A stretch of 32,575 nt of DNA from a virus (lineage: Duplodnaviria; Caudoviricetes): positions 1-32,575 of the IMG/VR virus record IMGVR_UViG_3300005573_000030; one strand, written 5' to 3'. A program made the position numbers and the translations under genes. Under the pieces are notes generated by a model. The model did not search any database, was not told where the DNA came from, and saw only the letters and a list, made by a program, of their open reading frames with translations. Shown here piece by piece: positions 1-32,575 of this stretch (its first letter is position 1; the number at the start of each line of letters is the position of its first letter).

Positions 1-121
1 AAGAAGTGCCACGGGAAGTAGGAGCTAAAAAAACCTTATAAACAAAGGCCAAAAGCCTCGTCGAAAGACGAGGTTTTTTTATTTGGAAAAAGGGAAAAAG
101 CAATGAACCAGACAGCAGCCA
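1..121. repeat. Exact terminal direct repeat (copy 1); circularisation overlap
   Basis: 1-121 is identical to 32455-32575; the repeat cuts through a leader and the start of ORF 103, as expected for an assembler overlap. Confidence 0.95.
51..80 (+). terminator. Intrinsic terminator in the early leader (same element as 32505-32534)
   Basis: AAAAGCCTCGTC-GAAA-GACGAGG followed by T7. Confidence 0.85.
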
Positions 122-387
122 GCCAGAACAAAATCGCCGCCGGAGAATTTAACAACTGCCCCGGCCGCGACGCGATAGAGGCAGCTATTGAAAAATTAGA
201 GATCGGCCTCGAGTACGTAGACCTCGACCGGCCCTACTGGCAGAACAAGGCCGACACCATGGTCTTCAGACTGAACGCGGCCAGCCCGGTCAACTTCGCG
301 AAGCTGGTCCACGAAATACAGCCGGACGAATTTCAAGAGACCAGCACCAGAGACCACCAGCGGATCCTGAGATTTTGGTGGGACTAA
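103..387 (+). CDS. Hypothetical protein, first gene after the early leader
   Basis: 94-aa ORF, A-rich leader, genome-typical codons. Confidence 0.75.
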   Translation: MNQTAASQNKIAAGEFNNCPGRDAIEAAIEKLEIGLEYVDLDRPYWQNKADTMVFRLNAASPVNFAKLVHEIQPDEFQETSTRDHQRILRFWWD

Positions 388-416
388 CAAACTAACCGAG
401 GAAAGGAAAAAGCACC

Positions 417-584
417 ATGGACAGAGCAACATTCCACGCGATCGAATCCTACAAGCGGATGAAGGTCGCGGAGTCAGCATACGAACGCTGCCGCAAGGAG
501 AACGAAGAAGCGGTCATAAGGGTACCGGAAAAAGAGATGGACCTTTACATGACCAAAACAGCAGCGATCGACAAAAAGTCTTAG
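417..584 (+). CDS. Small hypothetical protein (55 aa, MDRATFHAIESYKRMK...), not in the ORF track
   Basis: Translated by hand, ATG417 to TAG584; purine-rich leader ending CACC-ATG. Confidence 0.65.
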   Translation: MDRATFHAIESYKRMKVAESAYERCRKENEEAVIRVPEKEMDLYMTKTAAIDKKS

Positions 585-702
585 CCTTCGATCCGGGACC
601 CAAGAGCGCCAGCCTTGGGGACCGGGATGGGAAGCGAAGCAAAGGTCGGCCCGGCCGGACGGGACCCAAACATTAACCGGCAAAGCCATTAAGCAAAAAC
701 CC

Positions 703-831
703 ATGACACAAAAAGACATCAAAAAATTAAGCAAGGCCGAGTGGCAGCTCGTAGTTTACCTGCTGCAGCACGGCAAACCCCTGGCGCAGATCAAGCTCGC
801 CCGGGTAAGGAAGGAAGCCCAATGGAACTAG
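703..831 (+). CDS. Small basic hypothetical protein (42 aa, MTQKDIKKLSKAEWQLVVYLL...), not in the ORF track
   Basis: AAAAACCC-ATG start as in many genes here; stop overlaps the next start. Confidence 0.6.
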   Translation: MTQKDIKKLSKAEWQLVVYLLQHGKPLAQIKLARVRKEAQWN

Positions 832-983
832 TAAAAGCGACAGCGAAAGCGACGCTGATATTCGCAGCAGCATGGCTGGCACTTTGGGCCATGAGCTACA
901 CAGCCTGCGTAGGCACCTACCACAGCAGCGAGTGCCGGCAGGACCTGACCAGCCAGATAGTATTCAAGGTCATAAAAAAATGA
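822..983 (+). CDS. Small membrane protein
   Basis: ATG822 within ORF 741..983; hydrophobic segment TLIFAAAWLALWAMSY. Confidence 0.6.
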   Translation: MELVKATAKATLIFAAAWLALWAMSYTACVGTYHSSECRQDLTSQIVFKVIKK

Positions 984-1059
984 CCCCCGGGAAAAGGGCC
1001 ATTCAGGAAAAAGCAATTTAATTATAAACATCCTACTGGCCTGGGTCAAGGAGACAAGA

Positions 1060-1311
1060 ATGGACAAGCGAAAATTGACCCTTGGTGAGCGAAGTTATTT
1101 ATTAAACCTTTTAGCTGAGCAGCTTCCGAGCTGGAGCAGCGAGGTACTATGGGAATTTACCGAAGACCTCAGCCGCCGGCAGCGCGGATGGATAATACGC
1201 CTCAACCGCGAGCAGAAGTACGACCAGCTAAAATCGATTGTTAAAAAATTAATTGGAGAACACTACAGGAGAAAGCACCATGCCAAGCAAATTCCAAATC
1301 AGGAAGGCTGA
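1060..1311 (+). CDS. Hypothetical protein
   Basis: 83-aa ORF with AAGGAG upstream. Confidence 0.6.
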   Translation: MDKRKLTLGERSYLLNLLAEQLPSWSSEVLWEFTEDLSRRQRGWIIRLNREQKYDQLKSIVKKLIGEHYRRKHHAKQIPNQEG

Positions 1312-2503
1312 GCGTAGCCAGGTAAAGCTACGCATCGGGATATCCGGCCCGTCCGGATCCGGCAAGACCTACAGCGCACTAAAAATGGCCAGGGGAATGG
1401 CCAGCAGCTGGAGCAAGGTCTGCCTGATTGACACGGAAAACATGAGCGGCGACCTTTACGCGCAGCTCGGAGACTACAACGTAATAACCATGACCGAACC
1501 CTACAGCCCGGAGCGCTACATTGAAGCGATACAGGCGGCAGAGGACGCCAACATGGAAGTAATTATTTTAGACAGCGCGACCCACGAATGGGATGGCCGC
1601 GGCGGCTGCCTCGACATTGTCGACCAGCTCGGCGGCAGGTTCCAGGATTGGGCCAAGGTAACGCCCAGACACCGCAAGTTTATCGACAGCATGCTCAAGA
1701 GTACCGCCCACGTTTTAATCACCATGCGGACCAAGCAGGACTACGCGATGGACGAAGACAGCAGCGGCAAGAAGAAGGTCACCAAGCTGGGACTCAAAGA
1801 GGTGCAGCGCGAGGGCTTCGAGTACGAACTGACCCTGAACTTCGTGGTCGACATGAACCACCTGGCCAAGGCCGGCAAGGACAGAACCGGACTGTTTATG
1901 GGCCGCCCGGAATTCGTAATAACCGAGGAAACCGGCAAGGAGATACTCGAGTGGAACGCCAGCGGCAAGACCGCAGCGCCAGACTACACCCTGGTCAAAC
2001 GCCGCATTATGACCGAAGCCAAGCGGCTGGGAGTCGACCCCTACAGCAAGGACTTCGCCACCCAGGTGAAGGTAGCCACGGGCCTGGACATCAAGGACGA
2101 AGGCAGTCTCGAGGCCATATACAACCAGCTGAGCAAGATGCAAAAAATGCCGGCAAAACAGGAAGCACCAAAGCAGCCGGAACTGGACCCGCACGAAACG
2201 CAGAACCCTGAACCTGAACCGGAAAAGACCCCGGAGCAGATCGCAGAGGAACAGCGAGCGGAGCAGGAAAAGAAGGATGCAGCCAGGGCCGCGGCAGAGA
2301 AAATCAGCCCGGCAGAGCTGAAGGTCCTCCAGAGCCTGCTGCACCAAAAGGAAGGCATCGCACCGGACGATGAGAAAAACCAGGTCGGGTACCTCGGACT
2401 GGTCCACGACATCAACATCAAGACCATAACCGAAGTAACCCGCGACGAATTCCGGACCTTACAAAAGAAATTGCTGGCGCAAAAGAGTAAAGCGGAGCGC
2501 TAA
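1280..2503 (+). CDS. AAA_24/Sak4-like P-loop ATPase (putative recombination/annealing protein) with C-terminal extension
   Basis: Walker A GPSGSGKT, Walker B-like IILDSATHEW; Pro/Glu-rich linker; start moved to ATG1280. Confidence 0.8.
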   Translation: MPSKFQIRKAERSQVKLRIGISGPSGSGKTYSALKMARGMASSWSKVCLIDTENMSGDLYAQLGDYNVITMTEPYSPERYIEAIQAAEDANMEVIILDSATHEWDGRGGCLDIVDQLGGRFQDWAKVTPRHRKFIDSMLKSTAHVLITMRTKQDYAMDEDSSGKKKVTKLGLKEVQREGFEYELTLNFVVDMNHLAKAGKDRTGLFMGRPEFVITEETGKEILEWNASGKTAAPDYTLVKRRIMTEAKRLGVDPYSKDFATQVKVATGLDIKDEGSLEAIYNQLSKMQKMPAKQEAPKQPELDPHETQNPEPEPEKTPEQIAEEQRAEQEKKDAARAAAEKISPAELKVLQSLLHQKEGIAPDDEKNQVGYLGLVHDINIKTITEVTRDEFRTLQKKLLAQKSKAER

Positions 2504-2531
2504 AAAAGTGCCGGCCAGATAGCGTTTGAAC

Positions 2532-2591
2532 TTTGCTCTCGACCCTGTTCGTTTACCGCGAGGGCATAAGCGGACAGGGATCGAGAGCAAA
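2532..2591 (+). other. Long intergenic hairpin upstream of the replication gene
   Basis: TTTGCTCTCGA/TCGAGAGCAAA plus CCCTGTTCGTTTA/TAAGCGGACAGGG with two G.U pairs on +. Confidence 0.75.
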
Positions 2592-2621
2592 AACCGAATC
2601 AAATAACGGAAACCTAAACAA

Positions 2622-3164
2622 ATGTTCAAAGGCTTTTATATCCAAATATCCAACGGCCTACTAAAAGACAACCACAGAAAGCGCATGGGAGAGTCGGTAT
2701 GGGAATTTATGTGGTGCCTCGATCGCATCACCCGAATCGACGACAACGGTGACGGCTGGGTCCTCGGCGGTAAGCCGATCCAGCTCAAGAACCTAGCCCA
2801 GGACCTGGGAGTCCACGAAGTGACCGTGAGCCGTAATTTGACGCGGCTGAAGACCGAAGGGTACATCGAAACCGAACACACGCCCTACGGGATCCGGATA
2901 AAAGTAAGGCGAGCGAAAAAGAGCATAAAGCCAAAAGGGGGAAAAGTTGTGGACAACCTCGGGATTAAAAAAGAGAGGTTTAACACAAACGCAGCGAGGT
3001 TTAACATAAACGCTAAACCTAATATAAGACAATACAGTGACAATACAAGAATTAATAATAATGGGAACCGGGACCAAAAACCCAGGGACCCAAAAGCCCG
3101 GGAAAATTTGGCGCGAGTCGAAGCGATAAAAAAGAAAATCCGGGACAGGTTCACGATTAAATAA
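2622..3164 (+). CDS. Putative replication initiator (winged HTH)
   Basis: HTH-like LKNLAQDLGVHEVTVSRNLTRLKTEGYI; follows the recombinase; internal DNA repeats. Confidence 0.7.
   Translation: MFKGFYIQISNGLLKDNHRKRMGESVWEFMWCLDRITRIDDNGDGWVLGGKPIQLKNLAQDLGVHEVTVSRNLTRLKTEGYIETEHTPYGIRIKVRRAKKSIKPKGGKVVDNLGIKKERFNTNAARFNINAKPNIRQYSDNTRINNNGNRDQKPRDPKARENLARVEAIKKKIRDRFTIK
2949..3060. repeat. Candidate replication origin inside the initiator gene
   Basis: GAGGTTTAACAYAAACGC at 2975-2992 and 2996-3013; DnaA-box-like TGTGGACAA at 2949-2957; GACAATACA twice and an AT-rich tract downstream. Confidence 0.55.
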
Positions 3165-3474: not shown

Positions 3475-3504
3475 AAAAATAAAAAAACTAAAACAAAAAA
3501 CCAT

Positions 3505-4107: not shown

Positions 4108-4110
4108 ACC

Positions 4111-4698
4111 ATGCCAAAACAAGAATACAAAAAAGAGCGCTGCGAGTGCTGCAAGCAGACGACAACCTACGCGCTGGCTATCAGCAAGGGAATCGCGGAC
4201 CTGGTCCGGGCCTTCTCGGTAGCCATTAGTAAAAAGGGCATCAACGCCATTCACCCGGGCAAGGAGCTGGAGGTATCAGCCAAGGAGTGGAGCGTGGAAA
4301 AAATGCTGGCCACCGGTTGCATTACCGTGCAAATGAACAAGAACAAATCCTTCGCTCGCGCCCACGGCCTCATTGCCAAGATAAAGGGACAGCCGGGCAA
4401 CTGGTGCCTGACGACCAAGGGAGCCGAATTCCTCCGCGGCCGGCAGGTGCCGAAGTACGCGATTGTCAGCAAGGTCACCAAGCACAACATAGGCTACTGG
4501 CAGCCGGAGCTTTACCAGGTACGGATAACCGACTTCACCAGCGACGAACCAACCTGGGAAGTGCCGAACCTGACCATAGTCGAAGGCCGGGTACTGCGAG
4601 AGGAGGACCTGCCTAAGCCGAAGCCCAGGCTGCAGCCGGCCCCGCCCGTTGGAATTTCTATCCAGCAGCTGGCCCAGCAGGTACTATTCAGCGCCTAA
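4111..4698 (+). CDS. Hypothetical protein with N-terminal CxxC
   Basis: 195-aa ORF, CECC motif. Confidence 0.7.
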   Translation: MPKQEYKKERCECCKQTTTYALAISKGIADLVRAFSVAISKKGINAIHPGKELEVSAKEWSVEKMLATGCITVQMNKNKSFARAHGLIAKIKGQPGNWCLTTKGAEFLRGRQVPKYAIVSKVTKHNIGYWQPELYQVRITDFTSDEPTWEVPNLTIVEGRVLREEDLPKPKPRLQPAPPVGISIQQLAQQVLFSA

Positions 4699-4708
4699 AT
4701 ACAAACCC

Positions 4709-4873
4709 ATGCAAACCAAAACAATCAACGAACTCAACATCGAAATCGCGCAGCTAACAGACGACCTGAAGAACACCAGCCCCATGGCCCAGGACTACTA
4801 CGGCGAGCTGTGGCACCGGCGCGAAAAATTAATAACACAGCGCGACGCGCTGCTGAAAGGAGTGAGCCAATGA
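4709..4873 (+). CDS. Small hypothetical coiled-coil protein
   Basis: AAACCC-ATG4709, in frame with ORF 4649..4873. Confidence 0.6.
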   Translation: MQTKTINELNIEIAQLTDDLKNTSPMAQDYYGELWHRREKLITQRDALLKGVSQ

Positions 4874-5160
4874 TAACCAGCTACAAGATCAAGAACCAGC
4901 TGCCGGTATACGGCGGCAAAAAGATAAAGGCCAGCCCAGCTAGGAAGCAGGCCAAAGCCGCCAAGCCGGCACGGTACCTGGTCGAGTACCCGAAAGCGAC
5001 CGGAAACGGAGACGCCGTGTACGGCCGGCAGATCGGAGACGCGCAAAGCTACGCGCTGCCCATGAGCGAGCAGGCGGCAATCAGAGAAATTTTTAAGAGC
5101 GGTGCCAGGGTTTACCAGCTGGTGCCAGTAAGGCTGGGCAAAGATGGAAAAGCAAAGTAA
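4870..5160 (+). CDS. Hypothetical basic protein
   Basis: ATGA overlap with the upstream stop. Confidence 0.6.
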   Translation: MITSYKIKNQLPVYGGKKIKASPARKQAKAAKPARYLVEYPKATGNGDAVYGRQIGDAQSYALPMSEQAAIREIFKSGARVYQLVPVRLGKDGKAK

Positions 5161-5392
5161 CAAACAGAGCCTCGATCCGGAAATGCAGCGAGCGCTGCGC
5201 GACATAGAGACGTCGCGCAAAGCCTACTACCGGGAATACGAACGCTACCTACGCAAGCGCCACCCGGGAATTTACTGGACCGCGGTCGCAATTAACATCG
5301 CCGGCGCCCTGGTATTTTTAGCAGCCTGCGCCGGCTTCGGGATGCTGGTAGCCAAGGCGATAGAATTCTGGACCAGGATCCTGGCCAGGTAG
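5144..5392 (+). CDS. Hypothetical membrane protein
   Basis: C-terminal hydrophobic stretch. Confidence 0.65.
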   Translation: MEKQSNKQSLDPEMQRALRDIETSRKAYYREYERYLRKRHPGIYWTAVAINIAGALVFLAACAGFGMLVAKAIEFWTRILAR

Positions 5393-5417
5393 GAAAAGCA
5401 ACTAACAAAACAAACCC

Positions 5418-5801
5418 ATGCCCCAATTAGAAATAGAACTGACCAAGGAAATCGAAATCAAAAACCAGCTGCGCGTACACAAAGCCCAGCTCAAGGACAT
5501 ACTGGAAGACAACCAGGAATACCAGGACCTGGTCGAAAAGGGAAAAGGACTGAATACCAGGCGCCGGCAAATTCTGGAATCGGTAGCCAAAGCCTTCCCG
5601 AACATTATGGACGCGATCGAGGAAGCCAAGGCAGAGCTAAAGAACCAGCGCGAGCTGGTCAGCGACGTGGCCATAAACCAGCTGCTGCGCGGCGAGCCGG
5701 CAACCACCATGCACTACCCGGACCAGCCAGGCTACGAGTGGCAGCCGGTCATTACGGTCAAGTACAAAAAAGTAAAAACCGACGGCCATGCAGAACGGTA
5801 A
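5418..5801 (+). CDS. Hypothetical helical protein
   Basis: 127-aa ORF, AAACCC-ATG start. Confidence 0.7.
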   Translation: MPQLEIELTKEIEIKNQLRVHKAQLKDILEDNQEYQDLVEKGKGLNTRRRQILESVAKAFPNIMDAIEEAKAELKNQRELVSDVAINQLLRGEPATTMHYPDQPGYEWQPVITVKYKKVKTDGHAER

Positions 5802-6477
5802 GAAAATCATTCTCGACCTCTGCGGCGGCACCGGATCCTGGAGCAAGCCGTACAAGGACGCCGGCTACCAGGTTATAAACCTCACGCTGCCGCAGTACGA
5901 CGTAACGAAAGCCGACCTGCACAACAAGGAGCTGCTGCTGTTTGCCGCAGCGGACCCGCTGGAAAACCTGCACGTGCCGATAAAGGACATCCACGGCATA
6001 CTTGCAGCGCCGCCATGCACGGAATTCTCCCTGGCCAAAGGCAACCGGCCCCGGGACTTTGAAAAAGGAATGAGCGTGGTCCGGGCCTGCCTGCAAATTA
6101 TCTGGCACGTGCGGACCCACGGCAAGCTGAAGTTTTGGGCCTTGGAAAACCCGGTAGGCTTCCTGCGGCAGTTTATCGGACAGCCGGCGCTGACATTCGA
6201 ACCGTGGCACTACGGCGCCGGCCACAGCAAGCGGACCGACCTGTGGGGATATTTTGAAAAGCCAGTAAGGCTTTATACCGAACCGCCGCTGTGGCTGACC
6301 GGCAGCAGCATCAAGTACAAATACAAGAGCCGGCACTACCGGAACGCCTCAGACCCCGTCTGCCCGAAAGAGTACGAATCCCAGCTGGCCGGCCTCCCGT
6401 GGAAGCAGCGCCGCGCCGCGATCCGGGCCATAACCCCGCCGCACTTTGCCGCCGCATTTTACAAAGCTAACCCTTAA
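5788..6477 (+). CDS. Short DNA cytosine-C5 methyltransferase
   Basis: Motif I LDLCGGTG, motif IV PPC, motif VI ENP, later KRT motif. Confidence 0.8.
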   Translation: MQNGKKIILDLCGGTGSWSKPYKDAGYQVINLTLPQYDVTKADLHNKELLLFAAADPLENLHVPIKDIHGILAAPPCTEFSLAKGNRPRDFEKGMSVVRACLQIIWHVRTHGKLKFWALENPVGFLRQFIGQPALTFEPWHYGAGHSKRTDLWGYFEKPVRLYTEPPLWLTGSSIKYKYKSRHYRNASDPVCPKEYESQLAGLPWKQRRAAIRAITPPHFAAAFYKANP

Positions 6478-6481
6478 CAAA

Positions 6482-6664
6482 ATGCTGGAACCAATCACGG
6501 TCAAAGTTTGGCACGAACAGCAGCGGTACCTAACGGACCGGCTCAGGGCATTAAAACAATTCAGAGGCTACAGCTGCGCCAGAAAAAACCGGATCCGCAT
6601 AAAGCAGCAAATCGCCGAGACGGTAAACCAGCTGCGGCGGCTGCACAAACACAGACCAATATAA
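6482..6664 (+). CDS. Small basic hypothetical protein
   Basis: ATG6482 in ORF 6446..6664 fills the gap between genes. Confidence 0.5.
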   Translation: MLEPITVKVWHEQQRYLTDRLRALKQFRGYSCARKNRIRIKQQIAETVNQLRRLHKHRPI

Positions 6665-6706
6665 ACCAAAAGCGGCCGAACCGACCGGCCGCTTAAGGAC
6701 AAAACC

Positions 6707-7159
6707 ATGCAAACGATTCAATTCACGATACCCGGCAACCACGAAGCCAGCGACGGTCACCCGGTACCCTACGAGCGCAGCACCCAGGCAGGCTTCTGGA
6801 AGCCGCGAGTGCGGCGTTACAGCGCCTGGAAGGACTACGTGCGCTCGCATTTTGACCGGCATACCCGATTGTACGGCCTGCCGGTAATTATCAGCGATGA
6901 CGGCAAAGCAGGCGCCCTCTTAACGAACGGCCGGCAGCTCAAGCCAATACAGACCAAGAGAAAGTGCCGGATGGATATTTTTATAACCTACAAAAACCAC
7001 GCGCACCCGGACAGCGACAACGTGTGGAAGGGAATAGCGGACGCGCTATTTTACAACGACAAGAACGTCGCCGGCAGCTTTGACTTCACGGTCGATAGCA
7101 AAGCCAAGCCAGGCGTAAAGGTAACAATCACGATACCAACCAATGAAGGACCAAAATGA
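6707..7159 (+). CDS. rusA: RusA-family Holliday junction resolvase
   Basis: PDSDNVWKGIADAL...ND signature. Confidence 0.8.
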   Translation: MQTIQFTIPGNHEASDGHPVPYERSTQAGFWKPRVRRYSAWKDYVRSHFDRHTRLYGLPVIISDDGKAGALLTNGRQLKPIQTKRKCRMDIFITYKNHAHPDSDNVWKGIADALFYNDKNVAGSFDFTVDSKAKPGVKVTITIPTNEGPK

Positions 7160-7346
7160 AAAACCAACACCAAAAAGGCACCAGGCGATCCTGCGCTACG
7201 GCCAGCCTTATGAATACTGGATAGAGCGCGGCCACCTCTTCGGCTTTGACCCGGACCACGTCGACCAGATCCGGCGAGCCGGCAGGCAGTACCTGGGGAA
7301 ATTTGTCGACATCGAGTGCTTTATTATTTATACCCGAGGAGAATAA
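7143..7346 (+). CDS. Hypothetical protein
   Basis: 67-aa ORF overlapping the end of rusA. Confidence 0.55.
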   Translation: MKDQNEKPTPKRHQAILRYGQPYEYWIERGHLFGFDPDHVDQIRRAGRQYLGKFVDIECFIIYTRGE

Positions 7347-7350
7347 AAAA

Positions 7351-7686
7351 ATGTTTTTCAGCAACAAAAAGCGCCAGCTCACACCAGCAACCGCGCCCAA
7401 AGTTAAGCCCCTAAAATTAACCGTGGAAATCAAGCTCGAGCGGACCGAAGACTACGGCTCGGAAAAAACCCTCGTGCAAATCGAGCGGACCGAAACCTTG
7501 GACCACAACACGGACGCCAGGATCCGGGACATCAAGGACGAAGTCGCCACCCAGCTGCAGGAAGTATTCGAAAAGACCCTGGACAAAATCGAAGGCCACG
7601 ACCAGCTGACCGACGGCTTCCACGCCGAACTGGCCAAGGCCAAGGAAAGCGGCAAACCCGCAGCGGAACAAGAAGCGAACTTTTAA
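7351..7686 (+). CDS. Hypothetical protein
   Basis: ATG7351 after GAGGAG and an A-tract. Confidence 0.65.
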   Translation: MFFSNKKRQLTPATAPKVKPLKLTVEIKLERTEDYGSEKTLVQIERTETLDHNTDARIRDIKDEVATQLQEVFEKTLDKIEGHDQLTDGFHAELAKAKESGKPAAEQEANF

Positions 7687-7718
7687 CAATTTATTAAAAA
7701 TTTAAAAAGCAAAACCCT

Positions 7719-8141
7719 ATGACACAAGAACCAAAAGACATGGACATGCATCTGAAGCCGGCAGACCCGGCCAAGCAGAACCCAAAGCTCAGCCCGGAAT
7801 TTAAACAAAAGCTGCTGGAAAAAACCCAGGAAGAAGCCTGGCAGCACGAAGCGGATGCAGCCTACGCCAGAGAGCTGGTCACGCCAAAGCTGCAGACGGT
7901 ATGCGACGAACTCGCTGCGGAAATAGCCAAGCTGAACGAGCAGATCGCGGAGCTGGAAAAGAGCCACACCAAAGCGGACCGCGAAAAGAAGAAGGCCCTG
8001 CTGGTCGAGCAGAACCAAAAGACCCAGCGCCTCACGCTGCGCCAGAACGTGCTGAAGCAGGCGCAGAAAACCGAGGAAGCCGAAGCGGCCAAGGCAGACG
8101 AACGCTGGCAGTATTACAGGTTCGTACAGGAAACATTTTAA
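7719..8141 (+). CDS. Hypothetical coiled-coil protein
   Basis: 140 aa, E/K/Q/A-rich. Confidence 0.7.
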   Translation: MTQEPKDMDMHLKPADPAKQNPKLSPEFKQKLLEKTQEEAWQHEADAAYARELVTPKLQTVCDELAAEIAKLNEQIAELEKSHTKADREKKKALLVEQNQKTQRLTLRQNVLKQAQKTEEAEAAKADERWQYYRFVQETF

Positions 8142-8199
8142 TTATTAAACGGCAGCGCCGGGAATCGCAGGATCCCCGGCCTGCGCTCGTTCTAACACA

Positions 8200-9519
8200 A
8201 TGCAGACCCAATACGTAAAGCTAAACGACCTGCGGCCGGCAGACTACAATCCCAGGTTTATGCCGGCAGAGGAAATGGCCAACCTCAAGGAGAGCATCCT
8301 GAAGGACGGCTTCATAGAACCGATTATTATTAATACCCGGAACGATCAAGAGAGCGGCGACCGCAGCAACGTGATAATTTCCGGCCATCAGCGCCGGCTC
8401 GCACTTTTGGATTTAATCGCCAAAGGACACGACATACTAAACCTGCAAGGCAAAGGCGCTGACACCGCGGTCCCGTGCGTACCGCTGGACCTGTCCCTGG
8501 AAGACGAAAAGCAGCTCAACATCCGCATGAACCGGATCAAGGGCAAGTGGGACGACGAAAAGCTGGCCGACATTTTGGTAGGGCTGCGCGGCAGCGCCAA
8601 CCTGGAAGTACGCACCGGCATGAAGACCGAGGAAATCAGCCGCCTGCTCGACACCAGGCTGCAGCCGATCGAAGACGCGCTGACCGAAGCCGAGAGCGAG
8701 GCAATCGAAGGCCAGGAACCGGACAGCAAGCCCGGGACCGTGTACGAATTAGGGCCGCACCGCTTAATTTGTGGCGACTGCACAGACGAACGCGTGTGGC
8801 AAAAGCTGCTCGACGGGCAGCAGGCAGATATGGTATTCACGGACCCGCCGTACAACGTAAACTACCACAGCCGCGGCGACAACCTCAAAGACACCGGCAC
8901 GGAGAAAATCGCCAACGACAACCTGGACCCGGAGCAATTCTGGAATTTAATCCAGCTGTCCTTTTTACGCATGGCCCAGCATGCCAAGAGCGGCGCCAGT
9001 TTTTACATTTGCAGCGGCTGGTCCTCTTACCCAACCTTCCTGCAGGCCATGGAGCCGCAAGGCATCGAACACCACGGCGTGATAATTTGGGTCAAGAACG
9101 TCCCGTCCATGGGCTGGAACGACTACCGCTACAAGCACGAATGGGTCCTGCGCGGAGCCAAGGCAGCCGGCGCCAAGGAAAAGAAGACCGCCGAGTCGAT
9201 TGTTTACGGCTGGAAGAAAGGCACCCACCAATTCCACGCGCAGAACGAGTACGACGTATGGGACATGCCGCGGAAAGCTACCGCCCACTACCTGCACCCA
9301 ACAGAAAAGCCTGACTGGCTGGCCATGCGAGCGATACGCAACAGCACCAACCGCGGCGACATTGTCGTGGATCCGTTCGCCGGCAGCGGCAGCACTATGG
9401 CCGCAGCGGAAAAGACCGGCCGCCGGGCCTTCCTCATTGAGATGGACCCGAAATTCTGCGACCGAATCCGCGCCCGTTGGGATAAATTAAAAACCCTGAC
9501 GGAAAAGCCGAGCGCGTAA
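8200..9519 (+). CDS. ParB-like N-terminal domain fused to N6-A/N4-C DNA methyltransferase
   Basis: YNPR and IISGHQR (ParB-like); DPPY, HPTEKP and DPFAGSGST (beta-class motif order). Confidence 0.88.
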   Translation: MQTQYVKLNDLRPADYNPRFMPAEEMANLKESILKDGFIEPIIINTRNDQESGDRSNVIISGHQRRLALLDLIAKGHDILNLQGKGADTAVPCVPLDLSLEDEKQLNIRMNRIKGKWDDEKLADILVGLRGSANLEVRTGMKTEEISRLLDTRLQPIEDALTEAESEAIEGQEPDSKPGTVYELGPHRLICGDCTDERVWQKLLDGQQADMVFTDPPYNVNYHSRGDNLKDTGTEKIANDNLDPEQFWNLIQLSFLRMAQHAKSGASFYICSGWSSYPTFLQAMEPQGIEHHGVIIWVKNVPSMGWNDYRYKHEWVLRGAKAAGAKEKKTAESIVYGWKKGTHQFHAQNEYDVWDMPRKATAHYLHPTEKPDWLAMRAIRNSTNRGDIVVDPFAGSGSTMAAAEKTGRRAFLIEMDPKFCDRIRARWDKLKTLTEKPSA

Positions 9520-9551
9520 TTTAAAACGAACCAAAGCGACCACCAAAACAA

Positions 9552-10181
9552 ATGCCAAAAAAAGACCACGACCAAGAAGTAGAAATCAAGAACGCCATAC
9601 GCGACGTTTTAGCGGTTAACCCGCTTATTTCCATGCGCTCGCTGGTCGAAACGCTGGCCCGGAAAAACTACAAGACGGCCGACGGCAACCCGCTGCACCG
9701 CGTGTACGTCGGCCGCCTGGTCCGCAAAGTGTGGGGAGACATGCGCGACCGCGTGGACCGGCAGACCAGCAGCGACCGGCTGGCTTTGATCAAGGAGCGC
9801 CACCGCCTCGTGTACGAGCGTTTAATGCGGATAGCATTCTACACGGACGACCTGCAGAAAGAAGGAGCGCCACCGCCGGCCTACCGGGACCAGATCCGCG
9901 CGTTAACCGAAATTATCAAGCTGGACCTGGCGATACTGAACGCGGAAATGGACCTGGGGATTTTCGAGCGGAACCTGGGAGCGATAGACATCGAAGCACA
10001 CCGCAACCAGCCGCTGCCGCCGGAACTGAAAGAGGCGATACTCAACACCGCGCAAAAGTGGGGAATCGTCAAAACCGTAAGCGCAAAAGAAATAAAAACC
10101 CTGCCCGATGGACATTCAAGCCAAAACAACAAACCAGCCGCAGCCGCTGCCGGCACCAAGCCCGGAGCTGCCAAGGCGTAA
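9552..10181 (+). CDS. Probable terminase small subunit
   Basis: Helical, HTH-like protein immediately upstream of TerL; called from position. Confidence 0.5.
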   Translation: MPKKDHDQEVEIKNAIRDVLAVNPLISMRSLVETLARKNYKTADGNPLHRVYVGRLVRKVWGDMRDRVDRQTSSDRLALIKERHRLVYERLMRIAFYTDDLQKEGAPPPAYRDQIRALTEIIKLDLAILNAEMDLGIFERNLGAIDIEAHRNQPLPPELKEAILNTAQKWGIVKTVSAKEIKTLPDGHSSQNNKPAAAAAGTKPGAAKA

Positions 10182-11607
10182 CGGCTACACAGCCGAGGAA
10201 TGGCTCGAAGCCATAAGCGACTACCAGACGCGGCGCGTGTTAGCCCAAACGCTGCCGGGGTTCTGTATGGTTTATTTACCGCACTATTTCTACCAGCAGC
10301 CGGCAGACTTCCACGAAGACCTCATGCGCGACATGAGCGATACCAGCATAGACAGCCTGCTGGTTATGGGCTTCCGCGGCAGCGCCAAGTCGACGATTGG
10401 CTCGCTGGCGTTGATACTGTGGGCTGCGTTGGAAAAGCCGAAGGACTACCCGTTCATTTTAGCGGTAGCCGACACCAGCCTGCAGGCCGGCATAAACATC
10501 GCCAACATAAAAAACGAGCTGGACAACAACCTGCTGATAAAGCAGGACTACGGTAACATTACCGGAAAATTCGTGGCCGATTGGGACCTCGAGAGCGAGG
10601 AAGAATGGCAGGCCAAGAACATGCTGCTATCGAACGGCGTCCGCATACTGGCCCGGAGCCGCGGCCAAAAGATACGCGGACTCAGGCACCGGCAGTACCG
10701 GCCCAGGCTGGTCGTGATAGACGACCCGGAAGACCTCGAGTGGGTCCGCAAAAAGGAAAACCGCGACAAGACCGAGCGCTGGGTCAAGAACGAAGTAATA
10801 CCGGCCATGGACGAAACATTCCGTAAGCTGGTTATTATCGGCAACCAGCTGCACACGGACGCGTTAATTGCCAGGCTCAAGAAGAACCCCCGCTTCAAGG
10901 TTTGGGAAATTCCGCTGGTCGACAAAGCCGGCCGCTGCACCTGGACCGCCAAGTACCCGGACGCCAAAGCGCTCGAGCAGCTGAAGGTAGACGTCGGCCC
11001 CGTGACCTACCAGCGCGAGTACCTGCTAAAAATCGTGCCAGAGGAAGGCCAGGTCGTAACCGAGGAAATGATTCACTACTACGACGCGACGCCGGCAGAG
11101 ACGGAACTCGGAGACACCGCCACCGCCTTCGACTTGGCAATCAGCAAAAAGAGTACCGCGGACTTTACCGCCGGCGTGGAAGGTCAGACCGCGGAGGTCG
11201 ACGGACACCTGCGGATATTTATCCAGCCGGACCCGATCAACGAGCGCATCGACCTGCACGAACTGATAGAACGCGCCAAGGCCATACTGGAAACCAAGGC
11301 CGGCGTCCACACGTTCCTGGTCGAAGACGTCCAGTACCAGAAAGCGGCCATAGGTGAAATGGAGCGCGAAGGGCTGCCCGTGGAAGGGGTCAAGCCGATC
11401 GGAGACAAAATGGCCAGACTGAAGACGGCCGTGATTTACATAAAGAACGGCACCGTGCTGTTTCCCCGGCACGGCTGCGAAGACCTGCTGCTGCAGCTTT
11501 TAGGATTCGGAATCGAGGAACACGACGACCTCGTCGACGCCTTAGTTTATTTGATTTTACACATGGTAAAAAACAACCTGCGGCAATGGCAAGTCGTAGG
11601 CGTATAA
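10108..11607 (+). CDS. terL: Terminase large subunit
   Basis: FRGSAKST Walker A, VVIDDPE Walker B, nuclease motifs AFDLAIS and HDDLVDAL. Confidence 0.92.
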   Translation: MDIQAKTTNQPQPLPAPSPELPRRNGYTAEEWLEAISDYQTRRVLAQTLPGFCMVYLPHYFYQQPADFHEDLMRDMSDTSIDSLLVMGFRGSAKSTIGSLALILWAALEKPKDYPFILAVADTSLQAGINIANIKNELDNNLLIKQDYGNITGKFVADWDLESEEEWQAKNMLLSNGVRILARSRGQKIRGLRHRQYRPRLVVIDDPEDLEWVRKKENRDKTERWVKNEVIPAMDETFRKLVIIGNQLHTDALIARLKKNPRFKVWEIPLVDKAGRCTWTAKYPDAKALEQLKVDVGPVTYQREYLLKIVPEEGQVVTEEMIHYYDATPAETELGDTATAFDLAISKKSTADFTAGVEGQTAEVDGHLRIFIQPDPINERIDLHELIERAKAILETKAGVHTFLVEDVQYQKAAIGEMEREGLPVEGVKPIGDKMARLKTAVIYIKNGTVLFPRHGCEDLLLQLLGFGIEEHDDLVDALVYLILHMVKNNLRQWQVVGV

Positions 11608-11613
11608 AACCCA

Positions 11614-11820
11614 ATGATACAAACAGAGCAAAAAGTAACAATTACGGTCGACCGCCGCTGGCTCAACCTGATAAAGCTGGCCGAGCGCACCGGCTGGGGA
11701 GACATGAGCATCAAGCTAAAGAACGGCGTACCGACCGACTGCGAAACCATAATTCCGCACGTCAGGCTGGACCAGCAGCAGGACGTAGACGACGCCTACC
11801 GGGCCATTGGCCTCGGGTAG
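11614..11820 (+). CDS. Small protein resembling the YezD/DUF2292 family
   Basis: Helix followed by WGDMSIKLKNG...HVRLD, matching the remembered family pattern; by eye only. Confidence 0.5.
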   Translation: MIQTEQKVTITVDRRWLNLIKLAERTGWGDMSIKLKNGVPTDCETIIPHVRLDQQQDVDDAYRAIGLG

Positions 11821-12083
11821 CCGGCAGAGCTTGAAAGATCCAAAACCGACCCCGCCGGCCAGGCTCGACCCTCGAATTATAAGGCTTTTCGAAGCTCAAG
11901 ATCCGGCCGGCGACGCTCTCGCAAATTTCCCAATGTTTCGATAGGTTCCAAAGATCCAGAATCGGCCGCCCGGCAGGGTTCCCGGAAAAAACAGGCCCCG
12001 ATTTCCGAAGGTTTCGAGGGCAAAACTTTCGCCAAAAAGCTCGAGAGGCTCCCGGGCCGGAAAGTTATCCACCGCGCGAAAAT

Positions 12084-27577: not shown

Positions 27578-28597
27578 ATGGAACCAAATACCTTCACCGG
27601 GCTACTCATACCGGAGCAGCCAATCAAGCTGACCGACTACGTACAGGGAGACCCGGGTAACCCGCTGCGCGGCTTAGACGCCAGGATCCTCAACCCGACC
27701 GGCAAGTGGGCCAAGTACCGGCCGCCGCTGCAGCGGCAAAAGAGCGCCAAGACCGGATTCGAGAGCAACGACTGCACCGGCTACGGCCTGTGCCGCAAAG
27801 TCGCGGCCGATTTGAACTGCATGCTATGGGAAGGCATGCTGCCGGCAGCGTTTGTCGAGTGGGCCAAGGCGAACAAGTACATACAGTACCCGGACGGGTA
27901 CCCGCAAGGAACGTTTTTATTTGACCCGCAGGTCCTCGGCATTATGGCCGGCACGACCCAAAACGGAAACTGGCTGCAGGTCGTAGCAGACACCGCGCGA
28001 AAGAACGGCCTCCTGCCGGCAGGAACCCTGCCAGGGCCGGACGGCTATCAGCCAGGCGACTGGGCCGGATTTTATAACAAGGAATTAATCACGCCGGAAA
28101 TCCGCTCGCTCGGTTTGGAATTTTTGAAGTGGGTAGACCTGCCGTACCAATGGCGCAACATCGAGGAAGGAGAGGCGCTCAAAGCCTGCTCCCTTTACAG
28201 CGCGGTATGCACGTGCGCCGGCTGGAGCAGCGACAGCCCGGTCAAGTGGTGCAACGCCGGCGATGCCACCAACCACGCCGTAGGCCAGACAGACGACCAG
28301 GAAATCCTCGACAGCTACCCGCCGGATTTGAAGCAGCTGAGCAGCGACTACGCGATACCTTACCAATTAATGGTTTTAACAACCGTAAAGGAGCAGCCAA
28401 CTATGGCAAAAACTATCGGATACAAAATCCAGAATAACCCGACCATTTACGTACTGGTCGGCAGCAACCTGGTGCCAGTAGCCGACTGGCCGGCGTTTAT
28501 CCGGCTCGGCGGCGACAGCAACAGCGTGGTGACTTTGGCAGACAGCGAACTGGCAAAGTTTACCATTGTATCGAGCGTTCTGTTTAAGAGCGCCTAA
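27578..28597 (+). CDS. Papain-like cysteine peptidase, candidate lysin
   Basis: Q...NDC, NHAV and DSY in papain order; separate C-terminal domain. Confidence 0.6.
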   Translation: MEPNTFTGLLIPEQPIKLTDYVQGDPGNPLRGLDARILNPTGKWAKYRPPLQRQKSAKTGFESNDCTGYGLCRKVAADLNCMLWEGMLPAAFVEWAKANKYIQYPDGYPQGTFLFDPQVLGIMAGTTQNGNWLQVVADTARKNGLLPAGTLPGPDGYQPGDWAGFYNKELITPEIRSLGLEFLKWVDLPYQWRNIEEGEALKACSLYSAVCTCAGWSSDSPVKWCNAGDATNHAVGQTDDQEILDSYPPDLKQLSSDYAIPYQLMVLTTVKEQPTMAKTIGYKIQNNPTIYVLVGSNLVPVADWPAFIRLGGDSNSVVTLADSELAKFTIVSSVLFKSA

Positions 28598-28627
28598 AAC
28601 ATTAAATCGCAAAAGGACAACAAAACC

Positions 28628-28924
28628 ATGAACCGAATATACGAAATCGTCGGCAGCCCGGCCTTCCAGATAACCAAGCAGGAAGCTATAAGCATAGCCA
28701 AGGGCATAGGCATCGCCGTAGCCGGCGCGTTGCTGACCGAGATAACACGGCAGCTGACCGGCGCCAGTTTTATCCTGACTTGGCACAGCTTCCAGGTAGG
28801 GCCGGCCGAATTTGCTGCCGGCAGCTACAACCTCACGCCGCTCATTTGGGTAGGCTGGAGCGCCTTCGTGAACTTTGCCAGGAAGTGGATCCCGGACACC
28901 CGGACCACAGCCGGCAAGCAGTAG
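28628..28924 (+). CDS. Putative holin
   Basis: 98 aa, two hydrophobic segments, VNFARKW ending, lysis cassette position. Confidence 0.55.
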   Translation: MNRIYEIVGSPAFQITKQEAISIAKGIGIAVAGALLTEITRQLTGASFILTWHSFQVGPAEFAAGSYNLTPLIWVGWSAFVNFARKWIPDTRTTAGKQ

Positions 28925-28992
28925 CCCGGGACCATTAACCGCGCCGAGGCGTGGAGGGTTAGCCGAAGGCCCGGACCGAGGCAGAATTCAAC

Positions 28993-29550
28993 ATGCCAAA
29001 AACAGCTATCAGGCTCGCGATTAAAATCGCTATAGCAGCAGGATTCGCCGCCGCGCTTTTGGCAGCCCCATATTGTGCGAGTAAAGAGACGGCTAACCAA
29101 AAAAAAGACGCGCCACGGGCAGAATTTGAAGCCGTTTCTATGCAAACGGCAGACGTGAGCGCCAAAACGGAACCAGAGGCGCCAAATCTCAAAGAACCAG
29201 CAGAGGCCAAAAAGTACCTGGCCGGACTGGCCACCGCGGCAGAATTTAAAGTGCTGCAGGAAATCATACAATGCGAAAGCGGCTGGCAGCACTACTGGCC
29301 GACAACCCGCGCCGGACACAAAGCCGGCGACGTGAAAATCAGCAACGGCAACATCGGCTTCGGACAATTGAACAGGCCGACCTGGGAAAAGTGGATGCAG
29401 AAAAACCACGGCCTGGACATTTACGACCCGGCCGACAACCTGAAAGCGACCCTGCTCATTTACCGCCGCAGCGGCATCGGACCCTGGGAGCCGTACAGCG
29501 GCCATTGCTTCAAACCAAAACTACAGGCGAAAGGAATCAGCCCACGGTAA
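28993..29550 (+). CDS. Lytic transglycosylase-like protein with N-terminal signal/anchor
   Basis: IIQCESG, IGFGQLN..TW, DP.DNL, G..PW; Ala-rich N-terminal helix. Confidence 0.78.
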   Translation: MPKTAIRLAIKIAIAAGFAAALLAAPYCASKETANQKKDAPRAEFEAVSMQTADVSAKTEPEAPNLKEPAEAKKYLAGLATAAEFKVLQEIIQCESGWQHYWPTTRAGHKAGDVKISNGNIGFGQLNRPTWEKWMQKNHGLDIYDPADNLKATLLIYRRSGIGPWEPYSGHCFKPKLQAKGISPR

Positions 29551-29634
29551 AACGCTGACGGCCGGACCGGAGAATCGACCCTCCGATCCCACCGCTGGCG
29601 CGTTACTTTGAAACAAAACTAGGAGGAAAATAAA

Positions 29635-29934
29635 ATGAGCTGGCAGGCGCAGCGGTACCAAGACGTGGACGGCCGCCTGGCAGGCGACCGGAACCAGAAA
29701 GGCAACAAGAAGCAGTACCGGCTAAGCAAGGCGCAGCGCGAAGCCCGGAACCAACCGACCGAGCATCACGTACCGCCGCAGAGCGTAGGCGCGGAATTTA
29801 CCCTAACCCGCGCCCGGAAGTACCACGAAGCGTACCATTTACTATTCGGCAACGCCGCGACGCTCGAGCGTTGTATTGCAATTCTGAAACGGGACTGGTG
29901 GACACCACCAGAGGAGGCAGCATGGCAGCAGTAG
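29635..29934 (+). CDS. Hypothetical protein with degenerate HNH-like motif
   Basis: EHHVPP.S.G...H..YH; AGGAGG upstream. Confidence 0.5.
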   Translation: MSWQAQRYQDVDGRLAGDRNQKGNKKQYRLSKAQREARNQPTEHHVPPQSVGAEFTLTRARKYHEAYHLLFGNAATLERCIAILKRDWWTPPEEAAWQQ

Positions 29935-30125
29935 CAACGAGACGCGAACCGGACAAGACCCCGCTGGCGCAGACCCAGCCCGGTCATTGCCACGAATGCA
30001 ACATCACCGTGGCGCCCTACGAACCGGGAAAGGTACATTGGCACGGCTTGACTTTCCACGGCTCGTGTTTTAAAACCTGGGTTCGCCGGCAGCCGGATCA
30101 TTTGACTAAAAGCCCGCCCAACTAA
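29922..30125 (+). CDS. Small putative zinc-binding protein
   Basis: CHEC...HGSC; GAGGAGG before ATG29922. Confidence 0.55.
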   Translation: MAAVATRREPDKTPLAQTQPGHCHECNITVAPYEPGKVHWHGLTFHGSCFKTWVRRQPDHLTKSPPN

Positions 30126-30137
30126 GAGCGGACAACG

Positions 30138-30170
30138 AATCCCGGGACGCCGCTCCCGGGATTTTTTATA
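30138..30170 (+). terminator. Intrinsic terminator ending the late operon
   Basis: AATCCCGGGA/TCCCGGGATT plus T-tract. Confidence 0.85.
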
Positions 30171-30189
30171 GCGCTTTTTATTTTTAACC

Positions 30190-30218
30190 TTGACACCTAC
30201 GCGCCAATTTGCTAAGCT
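30190..30218 (+). promoter_or_regulatory. Sigma70-like promoter
   Basis: TTGACA-17-TAAGCT with extended TG. Confidence 0.6.
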
Positions 30219-30245
30219 CAAACGTGGAGAGTAAATACCAAAACC

Positions 30246-30273
30246 AAAACAGGACACCGCGTTCTGTTTTTTT
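30246..30273 (+). terminator. Weak intrinsic terminator
   Basis: AAAACAGGA/TTCTGTTTT plus T-run. Confidence 0.55.
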
Positions 30274-30359
30274 ACGCCCACACAGGATCCACAGATCCGC
30301 AAAGAAAATTAAATATACCCACCGGCCGTAACCAACCGGCAGCGAGCCTATAACAGGGC

Positions 30360-30388
30360 TTGCAAGCGACGGCGGGATTTGGTAAACT
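30360..30388 (+). promoter_or_regulatory. Sigma70-like promoter for a putative sRNA/integrase leader
   Basis: TTGCAA-17-TAAACT with extended TG. Confidence 0.6.
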
Positions 30389-30535
30389 TGCACCGTAACT
30401 GCTTAATGGCTCTTACAGCGGACGTTCACCATTGGACCATTTACCAGCACATTATGTGCGAAGTAAGGTGCCTATGGGGATACCGCGAAATTGCAGCCGC
30501 GACGTACATTCAACTGGACGACGCCTGGCTGCCGC

Positions 30536-30565
30536 AAAACCCACTGTTCGCTTCAGCGGGTTTTT
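30536..30565. terminator. Terminator-like hairpin directly before the integrase start
   Basis: AAAACCCACTG/CAGCGGGTTTT (one A.C mismatch); T-runs on both strands. Confidence 0.6.
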
Positions 30566-30570
30566 GTGTG

Positions 30571-31713
30571 ATGAAATTTTCAGAGGCAATAGACAAATTC
30601 AAAGGCTGGCGCCTCTTCAAGGTTAAGGGAAATACCGTAAAAGGGTACGACCGGGAACTGCGAATGTTTTGTCTGTTCCTACGAAACCCAAACATCGAAG
30701 ACATCCGGCTCCAAGACGTTATGGAATACCTAAACGGTATGAAGGAGCTGGGCTGGGACCATAACAGCTTCGTCGGCAAGTGCATGGCGATTAGAAAATT
30801 TTTAGAATTTTTCCGGCTGCAGGGATACCGGGTCCTCGACGAAAACCTGGTGCCGGTGCCGCACAAAGAGTACAACATACCAAGAGTAGCGGACGAAGCG
30901 AGCTACTACCAGCTGCTGAATGCGATACCAAAACACAGCCACGACCCCAGGCACATTCGCAACAAGGCAATTATAAAAATGCTATGGGACACCGGAGCGC
31001 GAAATGGCGAAATTTTACAGCTCGACGTCGGAGACGTCGACCTGCAAAATTGCCGGGCCGTCATTCGCACGGAAAAGAACAAAGGTCGGCGGCCGATCCG
31101 GGAAATTTACTGGACCGAAGAAACCAGCGAAGCGATAGCAGACTGGCTGGCCAAGCGTCGGCACCTGCAGACGGTCTTCCACTTCAAGGACCCGGACGCG
31201 TTATTTTTATCCGTCACCGGCACCAAGGAAGGGCAGCGCTTGTCGGTCAAAGGCGTCGGCGAGATGCTGCGGCACTACAGCAACACGGCCAAGATACCGT
31301 ACATGAACGCCCACAGCTTCCGGCACCACATGGGCCACGACATCATAAAAAAGGGAGGCAGCGCGGCAGACGTTATGAACATTCTCGGACACAGCAGCCT
31401 GGCCAGCTCGACGATTTACACAATGATGACCAACAAGGAGCTGGAAGACCGCTACCGCTACTTCAAAGGAATCAACGAACGCGAGGCAGACGAAATCCGC
31501 AAACAGCTGCAGCAGCGGCGCCAGGGCCGGCAGCACGAAACCGTGCCGGTCCGGATCGGAGCCAAGCCGCGGCCGAAGGGCCGGCCGGAGGTTTGGGATT
31601 TGACCAAGGCCGCAACCCAGGTGCTGCTCGATCAGCAGCAGGAGGCCAAGCGCCGGCAGCCGCCGGCAGCGAAGAAGCGGCTGCACCCAGGCCCGGGAAT
31701 TGCCGGCTGGTAA
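30571..31713 (+). CDS. Tyrosine recombinase/integrase (XerC/D-like)
   Basis: TGARNGE (R), TEK (K), HSFRH, LGH, IY; start moved to ATG30571. Confidence 0.92.
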   Translation: MKFSEAIDKFKGWRLFKVKGNTVKGYDRELRMFCLFLRNPNIEDIRLQDVMEYLNGMKELGWDHNSFVGKCMAIRKFLEFFRLQGYRVLDENLVPVPHKEYNIPRVADEASYYQLLNAIPKHSHDPRHIRNKAIIKMLWDTGARNGEILQLDVGDVDLQNCRAVIRTEKNKGRRPIREIYWTEETSEAIADWLAKRRHLQTVFHFKDPDALFLSVTGTKEGQRLSVKGVGEMLRHYSNTAKIPYMNAHSFRHHMGHDIIKKGGSAADVMNILGHSSLASSTIYTMMTNKELEDRYRYFKGINEREADEIRKQLQQRRQGRQHETVPVRIGAKPRPKGRPEVWDLTKAATQVLLDQQQEAKRRQPPAAKKRLHPGPGIAGW

Positions 31714-31728
31714 AAAACGCGCTATGAT
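31700..31728 (+). promoter_or_regulatory. Putative promoter for ORF 31764
   Basis: TTGCCG-17-TATGAT. Confidence 0.5.
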
Positions 31729-31763
31729 AAAGCTGTTTTAAAAAATTAATTTAGGAAAAAGCA

Positions 31764-32024
31764 ATGACCCCATTATTCGAAACGAACGTGAAGTGGGCCT
31801 GGTCCAAGGTCCAGGTATTCCCCGGCAAGGTCGTACACACGACCGGCCTCACGCACAAAGAAAAAATAATTCTGGCCGGCCAGATCGCCAGCATCGACTC
31901 GGGCATACCGTCCGTCGGCAAGCTGACGCTGACGACAAACAGCGGCGAAAAATTCGAAATGCTGGTGCCGGCAAAAGACAAGCCGAAGCTGATAGAAGCG
32001 ATCGAATCACAAATGAAAAAGTAG
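31764..32024 (+). CDS. Stand-alone bacterial PH-like domain protein
   Basis: Beta-strands with I...QIASI, GKLTLTT.SG and a C-terminal helix. Confidence 0.55.
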   Translation: MTPLFETNVKWAWSKVQVFPGKVVHTTGLTHKEKIILAGQIASIDSGIPSVGKLTLTTNSGEKFEMLVPAKDKPKLIEAIESQMKK

Positions 32025-32029
32025 CAGCC

Positions 32030-32056
32030 AAGCCCGGGCAGCCCCCGGGCTTTTTT
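32030..32056 (+). terminator. Intrinsic terminator
   Basis: AAGCCCGGG/CCCGGGCTT plus T-run. Confidence 0.85.
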
Positions 32057-32065
32057 AATTGCCGC

Positions 32066-32093
32066 TTGACGGCTGTTGAGGATATGGTACAAT
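32066..32093 (+). promoter_or_regulatory. Promoter giving a probably leaderless mRNA
   Basis: TTGACG-16-TACAAT with extended TG; ATG begins 7 nt after the -10. Confidence 0.7.
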
Positions 32094-32099
32094 GGCCGT

Positions 32100-32324
32100 A
32101 TGAAAACACTACTCGAAACAAAAAAGATAGGACGGCCGCAAAAAGCAGAGCGCAACCGCGAGCTGGTAACCAAAATCGACGCCGGCTGGACCCTCCGGCA
32201 ATTAGCCGACTTTTACCGGATAGGTATCCGGGCCATTTGGGAGATCAACCAGCGCGACCACAACACCTACTGCCAAAACGCGAAATGTCCCAATAGAATC
32301 AAGCCTTCCGAGGGCAAAAAGTAA
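32100..32324 (+). CDS. Small HTH DNA-binding protein (Mor-like C-terminal HTH), candidate regulator
   Basis: GRP...ERNREL...GWTLRQLADFYRIGIRAIWEI; C-terminal Cys pair. Confidence 0.7.
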   Translation: MKTLLETKKIGRPQKAERNRELVTKIDAGWTLRQLADFYRIGIRAIWEINQRDHNTYCQNAKCPNRIKPSEGKK

Positions 32325-32348
32325 TCCACTTTTTTCCCACTTTTCCGG

Positions 32349-32377
32349 TTGACTTTTGTTGAGGAAAGGCTTATAAT
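32349..32377 (+). promoter_or_regulatory. Near-consensus sigma70 promoter of the early operon
   Basis: TTGACT-17-TATAAT. Confidence 0.85.
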
Positions 32378-32415
32378 TAAGTAGGATCATTAATAACCAA
32401 ATAAGAGCCATCAAC

Positions 32416-32534
32416 CGACGAGGCGAAGGCTCCTACGGCACAGCTAAGAAGTTTAAGAAGTGCCACGGGAAGTAGGAGCTAAAAAAACCTTATAAACAAA
32501 GGCCAAAAGCCTCGTCGAAAGACGAGGTTTTTTT
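32416..32534 (+). promoter_or_regulatory. Structured attenuator/riboswitch-like leader
   Basis: CGACGAGGC (32416-32424) can pair with GCCTCGTCG (32509-32517), the terminator 5' arm; nested stems between. Confidence 0.7.
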
Positions 32535-32575
32535 ATTTGGAAAAAGGGAAAAAGCAATGAACCAGACAGCAGCCA
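32455..32575. repeat. Exact terminal direct repeat (copy 2)
   Basis: Identical to 1-121. Confidence 0.95.

Follow-up and report, generated by a model that had tools for sequence, protein, structure and literature searches.

A phage attachment site inside an early-operon leader, and a putative RNA antiterminator split by integration, probably at the 3' end of secA

The window, which is the whole stretch of 32,575 nucleotides analyzed here, is the circular phage record IMGVR_UViG_3300005573_000030, with a 121-nt terminal repeat (32455-32575 equals 1-121) that starts at the attachment core described below. It encodes siphovirus head and tail genes, and its early region carries Sak4-like and DnaD-like genes. 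On the plus strand, the first part of the early operon (103..3164) comprises an ORF at 103-387, which has an alternative start at 32557, small ORFs, a Sak4-like/AAA_24 protein (1280-2503), and a DnaD-like protein (2622-3164). Positions 1-12000 of this strand hold no promoter above 9/12. On the same strand, Pfam and homologue searches place a tyrosine integrase of a Patescibacteria family at 30571..31713, and its named relatives come mostly from Patescibacteria. The SAM-like domain found by Pfam begins at residue 21, which would leave little space for an arm-binding domain. The integrase ends in a Q/A/P/K-rich tail of 80 aa (31471-31713) that extends past the 300-aa family core; homologues range from 296 to 424 aa, and their tail length is variable.

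A promoter-like site at 32066..32093 (plus strand) precedes a small helix-turn-helix (HTH) gene at 32100..32324 on the same strand, whose 74-aa product is assigned tentatively from HTH look-alikes (score 0.90); a homologue search returned the protein itself alone. The spacer of this site contains TGTTGAGGA (32074-82), a 9-mer found at only one other place in the window, namely, at 32357-65 within the early promoter, where it looks like an operator. The HTH protein is likely the repressor. The stretch between int and the HTH promoter (31764-32052) holds a terminator and an ORF of 86 aa that matches no family, and the corresponding gap is shorter in most relatives.

Downstream of the HTH gene, the early promoter, TTGACT-17-TATAAT (32349..32377, plus strand, 11/12 consensus), is the best of 7 sites in 28500-32575, where 2.0 are expected. 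Because the record is circular via its terminal repeat, the leader runs into ORF 103, as proposed in the initial annotation, which described a near-consensus promoter and a leader of ~170 nt. The helices named there are all present on the plus strand. The 5' strand of P1 (32416..32424) is a perfect 9-bp complement of 32509-17. P2 (32429..32479) consists of an outer helix, 32429-36/32472-79, and an inner helix, 32437-41/32460-64, both perfect complements. An intrinsic terminator follows at 32509..32534, with a stem at 32509-16/32521-28, a GAAA loop at 32517-20, and a U run at 32528-34. The 5' arm of this terminator doubles as the 3' strand of P1 (32509-17). The leader folds better than expected by chance (z -4.19, 0/200 shuffles), and when the upstream arm was shuffled 200,000 times, only 68 shuffles produced nine nucleotides perfectly complementary to the terminator arm. 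P1 and the terminator are mutually exclusive, and the two constrained folds lie ~1 kcal/mol apart (-51.7 versus -52.6). When the last 9 nt are kept single-stranded, P1 is complete at 32524-32534 and then stands at ~0.4; in the fully synthesized leader, the terminator takes ~60% at equilibrium. The absence of a known riboswitch class, suspected from the letters alone, is borne out by Rfam, which gives 0 matches at the gathering score in the window and 0 in 20 related loci, and merely weak subthreshold ones.

What lies at the center of this element? When 165 loci were searched with the leader, the matches were mainly to its central 30 nt, which encode KKFKKCHGK*, the last residues of the SEC-C motif of SecA. 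This copy of the secA 3' end (32446..32475, plus strand) was overlooked by the initial annotation. It contains a 15-bp core (32454..32468) that contig junctions reveal to be common to attP, attB, attL, and attR. All four junctions are present in both of the hot-spring metagenome runs that contain the window, with depths in the two runs of 3/2 for attP, 7/2 for attR, 4/3.8 for attL, and 5/2 for attB. In the contigs of both runs, two left and two right partners are combined in all four ways around 32454-32468, indicating that the phage exists both integrated and excised. The core lies ~130 nt 3' of the stop codon of the HTH gene, within the leader; attP is almost certainly part of the early transcript's leader. 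The early promoter stands on the P arm facing the core, together with the P1 5' strand, and the terminator stands on the P' arm. The outer helix of P2 bridges the two arms across the core, and its inner helix overlaps the symmetry of the recombination site. The purine-rich bulge ACGGGAA and the inner hairpin are accounted for by SecA codons (C-H-G-K-stop) and by the left/right symmetry of the site. An inner motif is common to the int leader and P2. A dif-like 11-6-11 site with exchange in 32448-53 was also considered but is not supported as such, since its spacer is not shared by the partners and goes along with the left arm.

The second left partner encodes SGKKY, like secA. The target of the window phage is inferred from the 15 letters over which this host partner is visible, and it is very probably secA. 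Integration would then likely complete secA through the 3'-end copy borne by the phage. Locus L086 reproduces the window sequence exactly as far as the core; beyond it come the arm and early genes of another phage, so the window phage had integrated at a second prophage's left end. This related prophage, at 11899-20900 of L086, lies directly behind attR of the window phage, and its abutment suggests that prophages stack at the secA end. Three other loci (L035, L044, and L055) have 2 to 3 cores in tandem, possibly scars. A short contig (run X1, record 3) matches window positions 32427-32463 with 2 differences and a different right flank, suggesting that this run contains one more variant site.

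Relatives of the window phage were collected as 164 integrase loci, a count that includes the window's own locus and duplicates. A SEC-C remnant on the same strand lies within 3.5 kb behind int in 87/164 of them and in 54 of the 91 loci that have a 3.5-kb flank. The intact secA end lies at the opposite end of the prophage, and Pfam confirms SecA in all three cases tested (L118, L173, and L189). The consensus of 65 sites follows the SEC-C codons, with their third positions free to vary. On these sequences, the 3' end of secA is a common integration site in Patescibacteria. A literature search for this site in Patescibacteria gave no relevant paper; the accessible part of a preprint on patescibacterial phages describes prophages with predicted att sites and does not contain the word secA (10.1101/2024.03.08.584096). 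In viral contigs, neither a 20-mer of the leader nor a 24-mer from the neighboring phage's arm found a match at the DNA level, single-protein searches with ORF 103 and with the Sak4-like protein gave no loci, and a phylum sample of 401 genomes yielded no additional carriers.

The layout of the arms is shared as well. Of 65 distinct P arms, 55 have a strong promoter within 260 nt that faces the core and 1 has it on the opposite strand; 43 carry two promoters. In the relatives inspected, int and the core are separated by a small basic ORF. Terminators are found in 19/23 far-end arms versus 10/70 arms beside the int-side core. Behind the terminator, all six relatives scanned have annealing or replication-initiation genes (Sak4/Erf-like, O-like, and DnaD-like), so the placement before recombination and replication genes noted for the window recurs in relatives. 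Locus L118 contains both ends of a 10-kb element: the complete secA end is at 1485, and the remnant is at 11542. The stretch 1485-11560 encodes an O-like replication protein, a methylase, an LPD38 protein, and an amidase, with no head or tail genes among 8 ORFs scanned; from its gene content, this element is likely a satellite with the same switch. Four loci (L108, L110, L119, and L150) carry the SEC-C core on the upstream side, 1.1-3.9 kb from the integrase end, a second layout in the same family. Family elements also occur in three records titled Bacteroidia or Bacteroidetes (L045, L046, and L048); their terminators and P1 matches are weak, and misbinning or a wider host range is possible.

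Between the two ends of the prophage, the strands of P1 change together. A total of 32 arm pairs were set up, from 9 intact sites (chosen by eye), 10 records with both ends, and 13 cases with the secA end elsewhere in the genome; 8 pairs were dropped, 4 without an int-side core and 4 without a terminator, leaving 24 (9, 10, and 5, respectively). The mean duplex is -14.2 kcal/mol for the 24 cognate pairs versus -8.2 kcal/mol for 486 foreign pairs. Since the 24 pairs are mutually related and fall into 12 terminator classes, significance over them is overstated; counted by class, the cognate arm comes first in 8/12. The cognate duplex exceeds all foreign ones at 6/9 intact sites, in 7/10 same-record pairs, and in 1/5 same-genome pairs, and it exceeds 95% of shuffles in 8/9, 7/10, and 2/5, respectively. 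In 9 of the 10 same-record pairs, the promoter arm has a 7- to 11-bp complement of its own terminator arm (at least 7 Watson-Crick pairs), and the three complete circles (window, L005, and L016) all have 9 to 11 perfect pairs. The strands, promoter arm first, are CGACGAGGC/GCCTCGTCG in the window, CCAGTAAGGG/CCCTTACTGG in L005, TCTCGTAGAGC/GCTCTACGAGA in L016, ATTCGTGAG/CTCACGAAT in L021, TCGACTGGGT/ACCCAGTCGA in L009-L209, CGCACGGG/CCCGTGCG in L034-L176, and, with one G-U pair, TCGCATGGGC/GCCCGTGCGA in L040-L178. The P1 strand lies at a variable distance of 22 to 61 nt from the core and often takes in loop bases, and G-U pairs are kept in L040, L018, and L019. The motif is wholly different between phages with 50-70% identical integrases, yet it tracks the terminator arm. 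The initial annotation staked P1 on its conservation and covariation in homologous leaders, and both are found across the arm pairs of relatives.

The match is absent from L010, L037/L175, L069/L186, and L049/L174 and weak at L046 (paired with L168) and L048. For L037/L175, which is one contig, no matching terminator and no inner junction were found. The pairing of L045, L046, and L048 with the secA ends of their own genomes was set aside as probably wrong, with phage-like genes following L046 and L048. Host-side and tandem terminators (L034, L068, L117, and L086) show no match to the arm upstream of them. The outer helix of P2 is less general than P1, with the cognate first in 8/24; in the L118 family it appears, by eye, to compete with a hairpin that masks the P1 strand.

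In folds of the joined arms, the equilibrium probability of the terminator falls below 0.5 in 7/24 cognate leaders, 0/469 foreign pairs, and 0/336 secA-led constructs, and it is 0.999 at the natural L086 junction. The terminator is still favored at equilibrium in 17/24 cognate leaders, meaning that read-through would rest on folding order or a helper. A cotranscriptional occupancy measure discriminated poorly, as 210/469 foreign pairs reached at least 0.5. P1 is probably a working antiterminator; that the switch is on by default without a further factor is only somewhat favored.

It is likely, if a shade less so than the role of P1 itself, that excision rebuilds an antiterminator at attP and switches the early operon on, and that integration into secA dismantles the switch. 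With the core inside the leader, integration brings the terminator and the early operon behind secA and removes them from the promoter and the P1 5' strand. In the prophage, secA would end on letters supplied by the phage and be followed by the phage terminator, which should be active because no matching strand lies upstream of it and which would block read-through from secA or from the promoter of a neighboring prophage. The early promoter would fire outward at the far end, into host DNA or the neighbor, and the equilibrium value at L086 suggests that its transcript would not open the neighbor's terminator. In the circle, the transcript would span attP, P2 would draw the strands of P1 together, and P1 would capture the 5' arm of the terminator first, as its 3' strand exits RNA polymerase earlier than the 3' arm of the terminator does; the operon would then be transcribed. 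The small HTH protein likely represses the early promoter and so would confer immunity against incoming circles, and induction would then have to begin with integrase-driven excision. The input of the switch is most likely the state of the DNA, integrated or circular, and not a ligand. The lysis/lysogeny role raised in the initial annotation is plausible; the mechanism differs from any proposed there.

Could the same split leader be set from elsewhere? A phage RNA acting in trans, of the type of phage P1 C4 or P4 CI and made, for example, from the promoter at 30367-30395, might choose between P1 and the terminator and give immunity. The near-equal energies of the two folds would suit such a regulator, as would a well-folded RNA at 30400-30570 (z -3.4) and a 13-nt near-complement between 30403-15 and 32402-14. 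However, that match ranks 14/27 and lies outside the 15 best duplexes genome-wide, and there is no C4 or other Rfam match; control by the 30395 RNA, which the initial annotation listed as a candidate to probe, finds no support above chance. In the largest cluster of relatives (17/61 loci), the pre-int RNA has a 10-bp match to the leader that ranks 2/27, but the cognate pair comes first in 0/27 clusters. An RNA from the int leader is therefore not supported as general control, one cluster keeping it open, and we regard this explanation as unlikely.

Less likely still, the repeated 9-mer could be a DNA site for an integrase arm, a directionality factor, or an HU-like protein, with the terminator serving as an insulator and the circle being read through by a protein antiterminator or leakage. 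The motif does flank the recombination site, the phage encodes an HU-like protein, and the terminator is favored at equilibrium in most cognate leaders. A protein-binding site would hardly change wholly between phages with such similar integrases while following the terminator arm, nor would it be expected at so variable a distance from the core, with loop bases included and G-U pairs kept. A boxA pattern, which divergent sites would escape, has no match in the leader. As for a new ligand riboswitch with P2 and the ACGGGAA bulge as its aptamer, the layout of an expression platform, the near-equal folds, and the lack of an Rfam match fit it, but it is very improbable, because the conserved letters are SecA codons that vary at third positions, the candidate aptamer is split in two in the prophage, and the flanking helices vary in sequence and length between relatives. 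From the expression-platform reading of the initial annotation, the terminator/antiterminator logic is retained and the aptamer is not. The leader is a real feature of the whole family, and its explanation through the attachment site is better supported than that of the initial annotation.

Integration is known to part regulatory elements from genes. In lambda sib retroregulation and the P2 split operon, an RNA element or a promoter is separated from the gene that it controls; both control int, and to our knowledge, neither uses an antiterminator assembled at attP. The element in the window works like the switch of ICEKp1. In the accessible part of that report, one end supplies a promoter and a short strand, which meet a terminator-like stem-loop from the other end at attP, a 15-bp strand relieves termination before int by a pairing proposed in silico and unvalidated, and the integrated form dampens host read-through (PMC13023037). 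The window likewise has a promoter and complementary strand before att and a terminator behind it. As far as that account goes, the output of ICEKp1 is int, which favors reintegration, and the target is a tRNA gene, whereas the window has an early replication operon as output and secA as target, transcribes int separately, and shows a pairing that covaries in 8/12 sequence classes. In Tn916 (transfer operon) and ICEclc (Pcirc), promoterless genes are transcribed through att after excision (PMC5812530, PMC6540685). As in the window, a promoter on one arm faces att and the controlled genes lie on the other arm; these are ICEs, however, for which the accessible parts of the reports describe no matched antiterminator/terminator pair, while the window controls phage lytic genes. 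The controlled genes in the window and in 6/6 relatives are Sak4/Erf-, O-, and DnaD-like and neither int nor an ICE transfer operon. For mycobacteriophage BPs, according to the part of the source available, recombination itself is the lysis/lysogeny switch, with a small cassette of int and a regulator, attP lies within the repressor gene, and integration removes a degradation tag (PMC3694055). Recombination as a switch and the small cassette are common to both, but attP of BPs is in the frame of the repressor, whereas that of the window is in the early 5' leader and would act via RNA structure. The window element thus falls outside the ICEKp1, riboswitch, and BPs-type classes. A literature search with thin coverage of subscription journals found no phage antiterminator split by attP.

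If this reading is right, integration alone silences the lytic programme, and the lysis/lysogeny switch is recombination that makes or breaks an RNA antiterminator, with no repressor at the early operon of the prophage. Private antiterminator keys would keep tandem prophages at secA from activating each other. The order of events would be the reverse of that in lambda, where derepression comes first and excision second. Whether phages and satellites of Patescibacteria at large use such an excision-first switch, running the whole lytic programme through attP in secA with private antiterminator/terminator keys, is evenly balanced in our judgment. Natural covariation would back a type of pairing merely proposed in ICEKp1, and the matched pairs suggest orthogonal terminator/antiterminator parts for recombinase-based circuits. 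A 200-nt template makes the switch testable in vitro despite an uncultured host.

Further regulatory features lie around the leader. On the minus strand, a strong promoter-like site at 1049-1021 (11/12) points back to the leader, followed by a hairpin at 1004-978, and antisense control of the early operon is possible. Directly before int, 30367-30570 holds a promoter-like site, a folded RNA (z -3.4), and a terminator, and this region probably controls int and hence induction. Relatives (e.g., L032 and L090) also have pre-int terminators, whose loops seem, by eye, complementary to the RNA upstream; the arrangement resembles C4-like logic and has no Rfam match. At 30118-30167, a 19-nt stretch like 32397-32415 shows complementarity to the int terminator in its loop region and is followed by a GC-rich hairpin and a T run.
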